Positions 28,720 through 33,124 of a stretch of DNA of 64,000 bases are shown here, piece by piece. The notes beneath the pieces were generated by a model that was not told the origin of the DNA, made no database searches, and saw nothing but the letters and a program-made list of their open reading frames with translations. A program made the translations under genes and the position numbers. The stretch lies in assembly GCF_036507355.1 (NCBI RefSeq), contig NZ_AP027877.1. The stretch is one strand, 5' to 3'. The stretch's first letter is position 1. Each line of letters begins with the position of its first letter. Source of the DNA: Escherichia coli (lineage in GTDB: Bacteria > Pseudomonadota > Gammaproteobacteria > Enterobacterales > Enterobacteriaceae).

Positions 28720-29613
<894 letters not shown>

Positions 29614-29666
29614 TTACCTCATCAATCGCTTGTCGTTATATGTTGTGTTGTGCACATCTATCCGTT

Positions 29667-29690
29667 TAGACGTCCAGATGTAAAGATGAA
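29667..29690 (-). promoter_or_regulatory. tandem MetJ boxes (metF operator)
   Basis: AGACGTCC AGATGTAA AGATGAAG: three 8-bp repeats resembling the AGACGTCT metbox consensus, upstream of metF. Confidence 0.6.
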
Positions 29691-30026
29691 GGAAAAGCCG
29701 AAGGGCGTCAACCGAAAAATGACCAATGATGGTGAGGAAAAATCAGGGAAGATGAATTTTCTTCATCTGTATATGGGAGTAGATAGGTTCTCTCGCATTA
29801 TCGCGTCGTGAAGTAATGAATAAATGCTTAAGCCATCGGCTGGAAATTTATTTAAATAAGAGTTAATTAATATTCACGACGGTGTTAGCTGAACACTTAT
29901 TTAAATAAAACAAATAGATACCATAATTTGCATTCATTACTGCATGTTTATTATTTGAACTACTTCAAACTATTAATAATTTTTCAAAAATTATGTTGCA
30001 GAGCAATTATGTATCCCCCACGATAA

Positions 30027-30054
30027 GTAGAACGTTCTACTAGAACGTTCTACT
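30027..30054. promoter_or_regulatory. tandem palindromic operator candidates GTAGAACGTTCTAC x2
   Basis: Two adjacent copies of a 14-bp palindrome with central AACGTT (LacI-family operator style) about 55-80 bp upstream of the PTS gene; coordinates +/-1. Confidence 0.6.
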
Positions 30055-30108
30055 TATACAAAAAAGACTAATTCGCGCAGCTTTATGCGCTATTCGGGGG
30101 AAATCAGC

Positions 30109-31434
30109 ATGAGTCTGATGTCGAGTTTCGTGAAGTCACTTTCTAAATTATCGATGATTGGTCGCGCCCTAATGCTACCAATTTCGCTTCTGCCTGCCGC
30201 GGGGTTGTTACTCGCGTTCGGCGATAAATTCCATTTGCCGTTGATGATGAATGCGGGCGGCATTATTTTTGATAACTTGCCGATGCTTTTTGCTATCGGT
30301 TCCGCCGTAGGGCTGGCTTCTGAATCGGGAATTGCGGCGTTATCCGCAGCCGTTTCCGTTTTTGTCACCAATATCACCATCAGCACCGTACTTAGCATTA
30401 CGCCAGAAATGGCCGGGCAAGGCGGCAAATACGCGATGGTGGTGGGGATCCCAACACTGCAAATGGGCGTTTTTGGCGGCCTGATATGCGGGATTCTGGC
30501 GGCGTGGTGTTACAACCGTTTTCATACAATGCAATTGCCAGAATTCCTTGGTTTTTTCTCCGGAAAACGCTTTGTGGCTATCGCGACGGCTTTTCTCTCC
30601 TTCATTCTTGGCTTGTCACTGCCTTATGTCTGGCAACACATTCAGTCAGGAATCGATGCGTTATCGGTTATCGTTAATGGTAACAACCAGGCAGCATCAA
30701 CCTTTATTTTTGGTGTAACTGAACGGGCGCTCATTCCGCTTGGCCTGCACCACATCTGGTATCCATCGTTTTGGTATTCTTTTGGGGATTACACTACCCA
30801 TGCCGGGCAAATGATTCACGGCGATCAGACGATTTGGTTCAAGATGTTGGAAGAAGGGGTGAAATCATTTAGCAGCGACAGTTATCATGACGCTGGTAAA
30901 TTTATGCAAGGTGAATTCCCACTGATGCTGTTTGCCCTGCCTGCGGCGTGCCTGGCGATGTATCTGCTGCATGCACATATTGCCAAATCCTTCTCTGCGG
31001 GGCTTATTGACTATATTTCGTTTGGTATCCTGCCATCCTTTAATGGCTACGAAACCAACTTCCTGAGCGCCATTATCGTCGGCGTGCCAATGGCGGTGAT
31101 CTACTACTTCACCTTCCGCTTTGTTATTCGTCGTTTTGATGTAAAAACGCCTGGTCGCACCGAAACTACGGTTAGCGCTAATGATAAATCCGATGACGAG
31201 CTGGCAACAGAAATCATCACGCTGCTTGGCGGTCAGCAAAACGTTAAATCGGTAGGTTCCTGCATCACGCGTTTACGTCTGGAAGTCTCTGATAAAGAAG
31301 CGGTGGATCAGGATGGTCTGAATAATATTGGCGCCCGTGGCGTGGTTTTTGTCGGCGATAACGGCATTCAGGTAATTTTTGGCGCGCGAGCGCAATTTAT
31401 CGCGCAAACCATGTCGACGATGATCGGTAAATAG
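30109..31434 (+). CDS. PTS EIICB component, glucose/maltose family
   Basis: EIIC domain with FGVTERALIPLGLHHIWY motif and C-terminal EIIB with CITRLR phosphocysteine motif; start at internal ATG with GGGGGA SD (track ORF starts 30085). Confidence 0.85.
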   Translation: MSLMSSFVKSLSKLSMIGRALMLPISLLPAAGLLLAFGDKFHLPLMMNAGGIIFDNLPMLFAIGSAVGLASESGIAALSAAVSVFVTNITISTVLSITPEMAGQGGKYAMVVGIPTLQMGVFGGLICGILAAWCYNRFHTMQLPEFLGFFSGKRFVAIATAFLSFILGLSLPYVWQHIQSGIDALSVIVNGNNQAASTFIFGVTERALIPLGLHHIWYPSFWYSFGDYTTHAGQMIHGDQTIWFKMLEEGVKSFSSDSYHDAGKFMQGEFPLMLFALPAACLAMYLLHAHIAKSFSAGLIDYISFGILPSFNGYETNFLSAIIVGVPMAVIYYFTFRFVIRRFDVKTPGRTETTVSANDKSDDELATEIITLLGGQQNVKSVGSCITRLRLEVSDKEAVDQDGLNNIGARGVVFVGDNGIQVIFGARAQFIAQTMSTMIGK

Positions 31435-31515
31435 CCTTAAGATTACTCGATGTCAGAGGTTCTGGTCCCTGACCAGAACCTTCTTGCTATTTAAAGAATC
31501 AACGTTGTTCAGGGA

Positions 31516-32538
31516 GTGAGTTTGAAGAAAGTCAGCATAATTGATGTTGCTAAAAGAGCCGGAGTTTCCGTCTCTACCGTGTCGCTAGTGCTGCGCCAGA
31601 AAGGGAAAATCTCAGAGGCGACCATCGGGAAAGTTCATGCTGCTATTGACGAACTGGGCTACGTGCATAATGTTGCCGCCGCCAATTTACGTTCCCACAC
31701 TTCAAATCTTATCGGACTGATTTTACGTGATTTTAGCGATAGCTTTTCCATCAAAGTGATGGCTAGCATTGTTCAGGAACTGGAAGCCAAGGGCTATATG
31801 GTATTCCTTGGGCAACCACAGAACGAACATGAACATCTTGAACGTTGTTTACTTTCCTTCAAGCAACAAGGTGTTGCCGGAGTGATTTATCTGGCTTCCG
31901 ATGCGCATCGTGAAACCCTACCCACACTAATCCGCCAGTGTTCGCTTCCCCTTGTCGTCGCGTCACAAACGCCCATCAAAGATGAGTGCAACCTGGTGTT
32001 GCGTGACAACCAGCAGGCAGCAAGCCTTGCCACACGTTATTTAATTGAGCGCGGCCATCGTTACATTGCCTATCTCGGTGGCAGAGAAAGCGATCTTATC
32101 CGTCAGCAGCGACTGGTTGGTTTTCGCCAGACCCTGGCAAAATTTGGCATTGCCTGCCGTGACGAGTTCACGCCAGCCTGTGACGATGACACCTGGGCCG
32201 CCAGCATGGCAACGCGCCAGTTGCTGGAAAATAACAACGCCATTACCGCCCTGCTCTGCCATTCGCCCGACGCTATGATTGGCGGTATCAACGGCATACA
32301 TCAGGTGGGGCGCACCGTTGGGAAAGACGTCTTTCTGACCCAGCAGGTAGCATTAATTGGTTTTGAAGATATGTTGCATATCAACCTGACCTCTCCTGTT
32401 TTCACCTATGTATCTTCCGCCAGTGAAGAAACCGGACGCCAGGCAGCGACCCTGATGATTCGCAAATTAAAAGACCAGGAATTGCAAACCCAAAGAATTG
32501 CGCTTTCCGGGGAACTGGTGGTGCGGGAATCGGCGTAA
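31516..32538 (+). CDS. LacI-family transcriptional regulator (MalI-like)
   Basis: N-terminal HTH DVAKRAGVSVSTVSLVL and periplasmic-binding-protein-like effector domain; GTG/TTG start. Confidence 0.85.
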   Translation: MSLKKVSIIDVAKRAGVSVSTVSLVLRQKGKISEATIGKVHAAIDELGYVHNVAAANLRSHTSNLIGLILRDFSDSFSIKVMASIVQELEAKGYMVFLGQPQNEHEHLERCLLSFKQQGVAGVIYLASDAHRETLPTLIRQCSLPLVVASQTPIKDECNLVLRDNQQAASLATRYLIERGHRYIAYLGGRESDLIRQQRLVGFRQTLAKFGIACRDEFTPACDDDTWAASMATRQLLENNNAITALLCHSPDAMIGGINGIHQVGRTVGKDVFLTQQVALIGFEDMLHINLTSPVFTYVSSASEETGRQAATLMIRKLKDQELQTQRIALSGELVVRESA

Positions 32539-32611
32539 TACACATGCCGAATGAGATGTACGTCGACATCGTCATCCGGCAATAAGGTGTAAACCAACTC
32601 AATAACTACTT

Positions 32612-33124
32612 TTATTTGATATCTTTCACGCGCATACCGTTGAGCTGTTCATCCGTGATGGCGTTACCCGCTTTGAAGTAATCAACCACGGCGTGATAAA
32701 CGTAATAACCGCCCGTTGTGTTGCGCGCTTTCCCCTCGATAAATGCGGTAAAGCCATCACCGCCATCAGCAAGGAAACTCTGAGTAGCAATATGGTAAAC
32801 CGTCGCATCTTCAATCGGTTTGCCATTTAGAGTCAACGTGATTACGCGCTGACCAACCGGCTTACTGCTGTCGTACTTCATTTCCAGGCCTTTCGATACC
32901 TGTAAAACGCCATTACTTAAACTTGCGCCGTGTTCCATCAAACTGCGTAATTGTTTCCCCGAGAGATCCATCGTCACCAGTTCGTTGGGGAACGGGAAGG
33001 TACTGATGACGCCGCCCATCGTAATCGCCCCTGCGGGGATCTCATTGCTAATACCGCCAGAGTTGGTTAACGCCAATTGGGTATTTTTACCCGCCGCTAC
33101 CAATAAAACCGTTAGATGGTATGT
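32612..33124 (-). pseudogene. 3' remnant of a 5'-nucleotidase / cyclic-nucleotide phosphodiesterase (C-terminal domain only)
   Basis: Open frame covers only a C-terminal substrate-binding-like domain; in-frame stop immediately upstream, no metallophosphatase domain. Confidence 0.55.

Follow-up and report, generated by a model that had tools for sequence, protein, structure and literature searches.

A lineage-specific imperfect inverted repeat with two identical 12-bp palindromic cores in the AT-rich spacer between metF and a PTS gene

Results

The window, by which we mean the whole 64-kb stretch of DNA that was analyzed, is E. coli-like in its gene order, with katG and metF on the minus strand followed by metL, metB and metJ. 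In the window, metF and metL are separated by a 3.3-kb islet with genes for a PTS EIICB, a MalI-like repressor and a 5'-nucleotidase. The glucose-family EIICB gene (30109-31434, plus strand) carries an in-frame deletion and encodes 441 aa instead of 499 aa; the missing 174 bp, equal to 58 aa of the EIIC domain, are bounded by an 11-bp direct repeat, TGGCGATGTAT, with one copy on each side. The repressor gene (31522-32538) was assigned to the MalI subfamily of LacI repressors at 326 bits against a cut-off of 310, and the 5'-nucleotidase gene is present as a C-terminal fragment only. Among sister assemblies with the same MalI-like protein, the PTS protein is either the intact 499-aa or the deleted 441-aa form, and the nucleotidase is truncated in all. 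Because the PTS deletion is polymorphic and the nucleotidase truncated, the islet is regarded as decaying in the lineage of the window.

The metF side of the locus is common to 5425 of 5426 complete E. coli genomes only up to position 29756, and the islet is carried by eight of the 5426 at ~87% identity. The PTS protein is 87-97% identical across 80 enterobacterial genomes, and the divergent metF-PTS order is common to Escherichia, Kluyvera and Klebsiella spallanzanii. About 250-260 bp of the region between the two genes have a GC content of 30-32%, versus 45-61% in the neighboring coding sequence. The AT-rich spacer itself (29771-29946; 176 bp, ~32% GC) is specific to the Escherichia versions of the islet; its counterpart in Kluyvera and Klebsiella is shorter, GC-rich and unalignable.

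We located conserved modules by aligning metF-PTS intergenic regions together with 80 PTS upstream regions. Conserved blocks were found at 29611-29770 on the metF side and at ~29950-30060 on the PTS side, and in the cross-genus alignment, followed from the PTS side, nothing aligned upstream of ~29945. In the metF control region, 8-bp met-box-like repeats (AGACGTCC, AGATGTAA and others; 29652-29691, minus strand) are invariant in Escherichia, Kluyvera and Klebsiella; they were recognized by comparison with the met-box consensus, which we take to be AGACGTCT. At the outer edge of this region, a dyad with conserved arms and a variable centre (TGAA-N5-TTCA, 29753-29765) resembles a MetR site, the consensus of which is presumably TGAA-N5-TTCA.

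On the PTS side, a CRP-family-like dyad (TTTGA-N6-TCAAA, 29954-29969) lies upstream of the PTS promoter and is conserved in 80 loci. Its arms vary symmetrically among genera (TGAGA/TCTCA, TGCGA/TCGCA or TTTGA/TCAAA), and its distance to the operator is either 87 nt or 97-99 nt, values that lie about one helical turn apart. The hexamer TTGCAG (29996-30001, plus strand) is invariant and would be the PTS -35 element. It is followed by a tandem LacI/MalI-type operator, GTAGAACGTTCTAC then TAGAACGTTCTAC (30027-30054). The CACGATAAGTAGAACGTTCTAC-TAGAACGTTCTAC block is almost invariant, and no other non-coding part of the locus is as well conserved across ~80 enterobacterial genomes; PTS transcription probably starts near 30031-30033. 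Judged by conservation, the real control elements of the divergent region would be the met-box/MetR block together with the CRP-like dyad and its tandem MalI-type operator.

The perfect 12-bp palindrome TTATTTAAATAA occurs at 29848-29859 and again at 29897-29908, 49 bp from start to start. A search of the window thus recovered the two exact copies that the original prediction had reported, and the gene context agrees with their placement between the divergent metF and PTS genes. The palindromes are centred ~130 and ~180 bp upstream of the putative PTS start, 45-95 bp upstream of the conserved CRP/operator module, and, relative to metF, over 180 bp upstream of a transcription start that was placed by eye from minus-strand -35/-10-like hexamers.

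How surprising such a pair is depends on the null. Whole-window dinucleotide shuffles gave an expectation of 0.00 exact copies of TTATTTAAATAA and are too lenient for AT-rich DNA; for a stricter null, the spacer alone (29771-29950; GC 0.32) was shuffled 1000 times with its dinucleotides preserved. One 12-nt palindrome arose in 107 of these shuffles; two contained an exact direct repeat of 12 nt or longer, and none an 18-nt inverted repeat with at most one mismatch. The same 12-nt palindrome never occurred twice (0/1000, and 0 in 2000 overall). One such palindrome in this spacer is therefore unremarkable, and the repetition is the non-random part, because single palindromes arose in 107 of 1000 shuffles and identical pairs in none.

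No third copy of TTATTTAAATAA was found in the 64-kb window with one mismatch allowed, and none of the window's other all-A/T 12-mers (55 in total) is repeated. Exact matches in 584 kb of enterobacterial loci were limited to the orthologous pair in E. whittamii, and 0.2-0.9 copies per 4.8 Mb are expected under Markov models of orders 1-4. The motif might have turned out to be common in AT-rich intergenic DNA, the outcome that the original prediction had named as speaking against it; these counts show that it is not, and they uphold its view that exact repetition at this spacing would be unlikely by chance.

A multicopy element such as REP, ERIC or MITE would leave further copies. We found no second copy of the repeat in the window, in the 5426 E. 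coli genomes (blastn) or in ~1.5 Mb of other loci, and no target-site duplication in its flanks. When the spacer was compared with the 5426 E. coli genomes by blastn in a distant mode, it matched nothing, not even the eight genomes that carry the homologous spacer (haplotype B, below); the sensitivity of blastn is poor on this low-complexity sequence, and the search therefore excludes close extra copies only. In the literature searched, the 12-mer turned up only in primers and unrelated organisms, and no paper treats it as a site of protein binding in bacteria. A metagenome scan with TTTGAACYACTTCAAAC, a pattern too short for the purpose, gave 120 unrelated matches, none with operator context.

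The 12-mer is a palindrome, and the orientation of the repeat is therefore ambiguous. Read as an inverted repeat, it has a left arm TTTATTTAAATAAGAGTT (29847-29864) and a right arm AACACTTATTTAAATAAA (29892-29909), of which 14 nt are exact and 17/18 positions complementary. The arms are separated by 27 nt, and no shuffle reached this level (0/300 and 0/1000). As an imperfect inverted repeat with 17/18 arms and a 27-nt spacer, it is a quasi-palindrome. Read as a direct repeat on the plus strand, GCTGGAAATTTATTTAAATAA (29839-29859) and GCTGAACACTTATTTAAATAA (29888-29908) agree at 18/21 positions, a score reached by 1/300 shuffles. A simple tandem duplication of 49 bp was rejected: the two units are unrelated outside the 21-nt match, and TRF reported no array there. 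A further inverted repeat (TGAAGTAATGAAT at 29809-29821 and ATTCATTACTGCA at 29932-29944; 12/13) encloses the first and is nearly concentric with it; this outer repeat is present in the haplotype of the window only and absent from haplotype B.

As DNA, the 76-nt segment 29840-29915 folds into a hairpin of -10.5 kcal/mol (z = -4.4) that beats all 200 shuffles. A nested 151-nt fold gave z = -3.5 as DNA, and z = -2.9 and -2.2 as RNA for the two strands. No terminator-like site was detected in 29500-30200; the stem consists of A/T only and is not G+C-rich. In an Rfam search with E-values up to 10, the best match was to a eukaryotic snoRNA model, at 25.9 bits versus a gathering threshold of 50. A small ORF over copy 1 was also considered and discarded; the ORFs of the two haplotypes (16 and 11 codons) read the shared block in different frames.

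We then compared the spacer among relatives. Haplotype A, with both copies at the same positions, comprises E. whittamii and ten assemblies of the window's lineage. The E. whittamii spacer is 95.5% identical to that of the window, and this species is the sole other carrier of the pair among the 80 PTS-orthologue loci. Haplotype B comprises the eight islet-bearing genomes among the 5426 complete E. coli genomes and two assemblies found through protein P0021, and falls into two subtypes. Here copy 1 reads TTATTTAAATGA (11/12), and copy 2 is degenerate and carries an indel (TATTTTCAAATAA). Further protein look-ups added no haplotype beyond A and the two subtypes of B. The Kluyvera and Klebsiella spacers contain neither copy.

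Over 29771-29946, haplotypes A and B are ~50% identical, with segments at 32-43%; in the adjacent gene, the identity between them at fourfold-degenerate sites is 66%. The spacer contains two islands of A/B identity, ATTTATTTAAAT (12/12) and AAATAAAACAAAWAGATAC (18/19). They are no evidence of constraint, because a neutral identity of 66% gives about one 12-nt run per 170 positions. E. whittamii combines the haplotype A spacer with coding sequence that is 95% identical to B versus 88% to the window, and the locus is therefore mosaic. None of the eight spacer differences between the window and E. whittamii falls in the repeat arms, a count that is uninformative (P ~0.16). Taken together, these comparisons speak against a regulator site that is conserved: only one haplotype has the exact pair, and other genera lack it.

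At the homologous place, haplotype B has a 27-nt inverted repeat with two one-nucleotide bulges, the score of which was reached by 1/300 and 4/300 shuffles in gapped self-alignment; its direct repeat is not significant (60/300 shuffles). The inner arms differ between the haplotypes yet stay complementary (AAGAGTT/AACACTT in A, GATAATTCA/TGAATTAT in B). This hints, weakly, that dyad symmetry itself may be maintained at this place. The hint is weak because both haplotypes have the outer arms of the inverted repeat by common descent, the hairpins of haplotype B do not exceed shuffles in stability (z = -0.9 and -0.25), RNAalifold found no consensus structure across the haplotypes, and the column-wise tally of pairs (11 invariant, one compensatory, four broken in B) was equalled by 85/500 shuffles. 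A conserved hairpin gains no support from the RNAalifold result or from the single compensatory pair against four broken ones. Candidate analogous inverted repeats in other genera, at -230 to -290, proved to be strong but unrelated GC-rich REP-type sequences that follow an upstream gene.

We also examined the element types that had been proposed for the repeat. NagC/Mlc operators are 23-bp quasi-palindromes in which only TT at -6,-5 and AA at +5,+6 are invariant (PMC4288165). Like them, the repeat lies before a gene for a glucose-family PTS protein and contains words that resemble half-sites (TTATTT and AAATAA). It differs in that real operators have an odd length of 23 bp and 9 bp between TT and AA; in the 12-mer the half-sites adjoin directly, and its outer TT and AA are separated by 8 nt, where NagC/Mlc needs 9. 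A scan for the NagC/Mlc geometry with at least 8/11 symmetric pairs found no qualifying window in 29757-30020. For IHF, no match to the consensus WATCAANNNNTTR with at most one mismatch overlaps 29839-29909, and the nearest lies at 29966-29978.

Predicted curvature reached a maximum of 14.1 degrees in 29840-29915, the 83rd percentile of the window, with copy 2 below the median; this is an approximate estimate from a wedge model (Bolshoy 1991). The original prediction had offered NagC/Mlc, IHF and a curvature element as candidates, and none of the three is supported: neither copy coincides with an operator of the NagC/Mlc geometry or an IHF consensus match, and the wedge model places the region at the 83rd percentile or lower. 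The repeat should not be annotated as any of them.

Of the window's 81 matches at 8/10 positions to the H-NS motif TCGATAAATT, one falls here, at 29845-29854, and H-NS-type binding is plausible only because the DNA is 68% A+T. Like H-NS-bound regions upstream of accessory genes, this is a long AT-rich tract before an islet found in few E. coli; unlike them, it has no TCGATAAATT match above background and no notable predicted curvature. Two further candidates were set aside. Promoter-like hits over copy 2, among them TTTAAA-16-CATAAT, are at chance level (two found, 2.1 expected) and absent in haplotype B. An ArcA-like 10-mer, AGTTAATTAA (29861-29870), and an ARG-box-like stretch, both noted by eye against consensus sequences, are not conserved in haplotype B.

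Of the identities tested, the SlyA core pattern was the only fit. PMC5797941 and PMC3173223 cite Haider et al. for the core requirement of SlyA, a 12-bp dyad TTA-N6-TAA, and both copies are perfect 12-bp palindromes that match it. The pattern has low information: it occurs eight times in the window versus 10.8 expected, and the match carries almost no weight.

Discussion

The repeat is real, is restricted to one haplotype, lies outside the conserved modules and has no other genomic copies. On balance, we think it probable that it is a lineage-specific quasi-palindrome in a fast-evolving AT-rich spacer, produced by local mutation and without a sequence-specific role, contributing at most to a generic H-NS-type tract. 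The original prediction had called its signal weak, and our analysis upholds that caution. We weighed four alternatives.

The first, which we consider unlikely, is that the palindromes form an operator pair for a winged-helix dimer of the SlyA/MarR type, or for another dyad-binding factor, that counters H-NS silencing of the PTS promoter from far upstream. The known systems lend it some appeal. At fimB, published work places a pair of SlyA sites in DNA bound by H-NS, 167-194 bp ahead of the transcription start, and SlyA is described as countering H-NS silencing at fimB and hlyE. The present copies are placed in a fimB-like manner, ~130 and ~180 bp upstream of the putative PTS start in surroundings of 68% A+T. 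Like SlyA/MarR operators (TTAGCAAGCTAA), they are perfect 12-bp palindromes with TTA/TAA ends in AT-rich DNA, at two sites far upstream as at fimB, and the SlyA sites proposed in E. coli are likewise AT-rich (TTAAATATATAA, TTAGATTAATAA). They differ in the central 6 bp (TTTAAA here versus GCAAGC), in that the pattern occurs at chance frequency, and in not being kept elsewhere. In haplotype B, the TAA of copy 1 is broken (TGA) and copy 2 is missing, and genera with the same operon and a conserved CRP/operator module have no such sites. Furthermore, the 49-bp spacing corresponds to 4.7 helical turns, so the two palindromes are not on the same face of the helix. If they were true regulator sites, they would show a recent accessory sugar-transport operon wired into H-NS/anti-silencer control beside metF.

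A second alternative is plain coincidence, in which two identical low-complexity 12-mers in AT-rich DNA are among the few such pairs expected per genome. Of the local shuffles, ~11% contain a single palindrome and 0.2-0.8% an exact repeat of 12 nt or more. A genome has several hundred AT-rich intergenic regions and should carry a few repeats of this kind, and the pair came to notice in a reading that searched for oddities, a selection bias. We nevertheless regard coincidence as quite unlikely, given that the match extends past the 12-mer in both orientations (18/21 as a direct repeat, 17/18 as an inverted one), that the same palindrome arose twice in 0/2000 local shuffles, and that an inverted repeat is also found at the homologous place in haplotype B.

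That shared placement, with its weak hint of maintained symmetry, is the starting point for a third reading, in which the dyad would be under selection as a counter-silencing or supercoil-responsive switch, acting through a SlyA-like or other dimer or through a hairpin, and would gate H-NS repression of the PTS operon; we judge this very unlikely.

Negative supercoils accumulate between divergent promoters, and a 27-nt spacer between the arms strongly disfavors cruciform extrusion, which needs a very short one. A purely structural role, as a cruciform between the divergent promoters or a transcript hairpin that senses or insulates supercoiling, is highly improbable: the supercoiling background, the folding scores (z = -4.4 for the hairpin, z = -3.5 for the 151-nt fold as DNA) and the inverted repeat at the same place in both haplotypes count for it, but the 17/18 arms would suit a cruciform and the spacer would not, the A/T-only stem is weak at -10.5 kcal/mol, the haplotype B hairpin is shuffle-like, no consensus fold, Rfam family or terminator-like site, essentially no covariation and no above-chance promoter for a transcript were found, and the structure is absent in other genera.

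We therefore return to a quasi-palindrome of local mutational origin. The two 12-mers would be the cores of one imperfect inverted repeat (29847-29864/29892-29909) within a 68% A+T spacer that separates two independently conserved control regions, those of metF and of the PTS gene. The repeat may have arisen and been sharpened by short duplication, or by replication template-switching between the quasi-palindrome arms, and would add at most generically to an AT-rich tract of the kind coated by H-NS-type nucleoid proteins. We infer its mutational origin, any H-NS coating and, from only three haplotype variants, its neutrality.

The repeat is an ordinary case of a known kind of sequence, the intergenic imperfect inverted repeat, and the analysis tied it to no regulon and no known family. 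It resembles the intergenic quasi-palindromes of E. coli that are template-switch substrates in its 18-nt imperfect arms, short interval and lineage-specific occurrence without a conserved partner elsewhere, and in being nearly perfect in one haplotype and rougher in the other. It is unlike them in that its arms show no greater concentration of differences between haplotypes than the remaining spacer does. It carries little weight for biology at large, and the useful outcome is a negative one.

The surrounding locus has a closer counterpart in E. coli malX-malI, where a glucose-family EIICB likewise lies beside a MalI-subfamily repressor, with a CRP-like dyad and AACGTT-centred palindromic operators. 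The genes here are co-directional, unlike those of malX-malI, and the likeness concerns the context of the spacer, not the palindromes within it.

Conserved sites upstream of the PTS gene

Across ~80 enterobacterial genomes, the non-coding block with the highest conservation of all those upstream of the PTS gene was a tandem palindromic operator with a 13-bp period (GTAGAACGTTCTAC followed by TAGAACGTTCTAC, 30027-30054), and GAACGTTC was present upstream of the gene in one or two copies. The operator is presumably the target of the MalI-like LacI repressor encoded next to the PTS gene. We also observed a CRP-family-like dyad, TTTGA-N6-TCAAA (29954-29969), that was kept across genera, with half-sites varying symmetrically (TGAGA/TCTCA and TGCGA/TCGCA). 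The distance between this dyad and the operator was 87 nt in Escherichia versus 97-99 nt elsewhere, a difference of about one helical turn, consistent with what is expected of an activator site that depends on the face of the helix.

Further upstream, the sequence AGTTAATTAA (29861-29870), located between the two identical 12-bp AT-only palindromes (29848-29859 and 29897-29908), fits the ArcA-P 10-mer consensus, WGTTAATTAW. It was not kept in the second spacer haplotype, that of the eight islet-bearing complete E. coli genomes, which had GATAATTCAC or GATGATTCAT instead; the match probably arose by chance in AT-rich DNA. In Enterobacter, Citrobacter, Lelliottia, and others, GC-rich REP/BIME-type palindromic elements preceded the PTS gene, following an unrelated upstream gene (roughly -230 to -290 relative to the PTS ATG; compared loci L048, L011, L027, L029, L055, L026, and L025). 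The neighborhood of the PTS operon therefore differs between genera.

A rare, mosaic, and decaying islet between metF and metL

Of the 5426 complete E. coli genomes, just 8 had the islet comprising the PTS, MalI-like, and 5'-nucleotidase genes (29757-33100) between metF and metL, and their islet was ~87% identical to that in the window. Comparison of loci L001, L003, and L207 (the last a sister assembly) revealed a mosaic: the E. whittamii spacer was of the window type (95.5%), whereas its coding sequence was nearer the other E. coli allele (95%, versus 88% to the window), which implies that recombination had a breakpoint close to the start codon of the PTS gene. The window diverged from islet-free E. 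coli genomes at 29757, inside the center of the dyad GAAGATGAA-N5-TTCATCTG (TGAA-N5-TTCA, 29749-29770), yet these genomes retained TGAA-N5-TTCA as well. This dyad, which resembles the MetR consensus, was conserved in Escherichia, Kluyvera, and Klebsiella.

The PTS gene (30109-31434) had lost 174 bp in frame at about 30953-30963, equivalent to 58 aa of the EIIC domain, and the deletion was bounded by direct repeats of 11 bp, both reading TGGCGATGTAT. The deletion is polymorphic: sister assemblies L207 and L215 carried an intact 499-aa gene and an identical MalI-like protein. Of the 5'-nucleotidase, the full-size counterpart of which is a 517-aa bifunctional metallophosphatase/5'-nucleotidase, only the C-terminal part remained (32612-33103, minus strand), a 163-aa ORF in the window versus an annotated 135 aa in the sister assemblies. 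Together with the PTS deletion, this truncation shows that the islet is decaying in the window's lineage.

Lastly, a perfect 10-bp stem-loop, GGTTCTGGTC-CCT-GACCAGAACC followed by TTCTTGCTATTT (31453-31482), lies between the co-directional PTS and MalI-like genes and may be a terminator or attenuator; it was also found, with changes, in E. coli LHM10-1.
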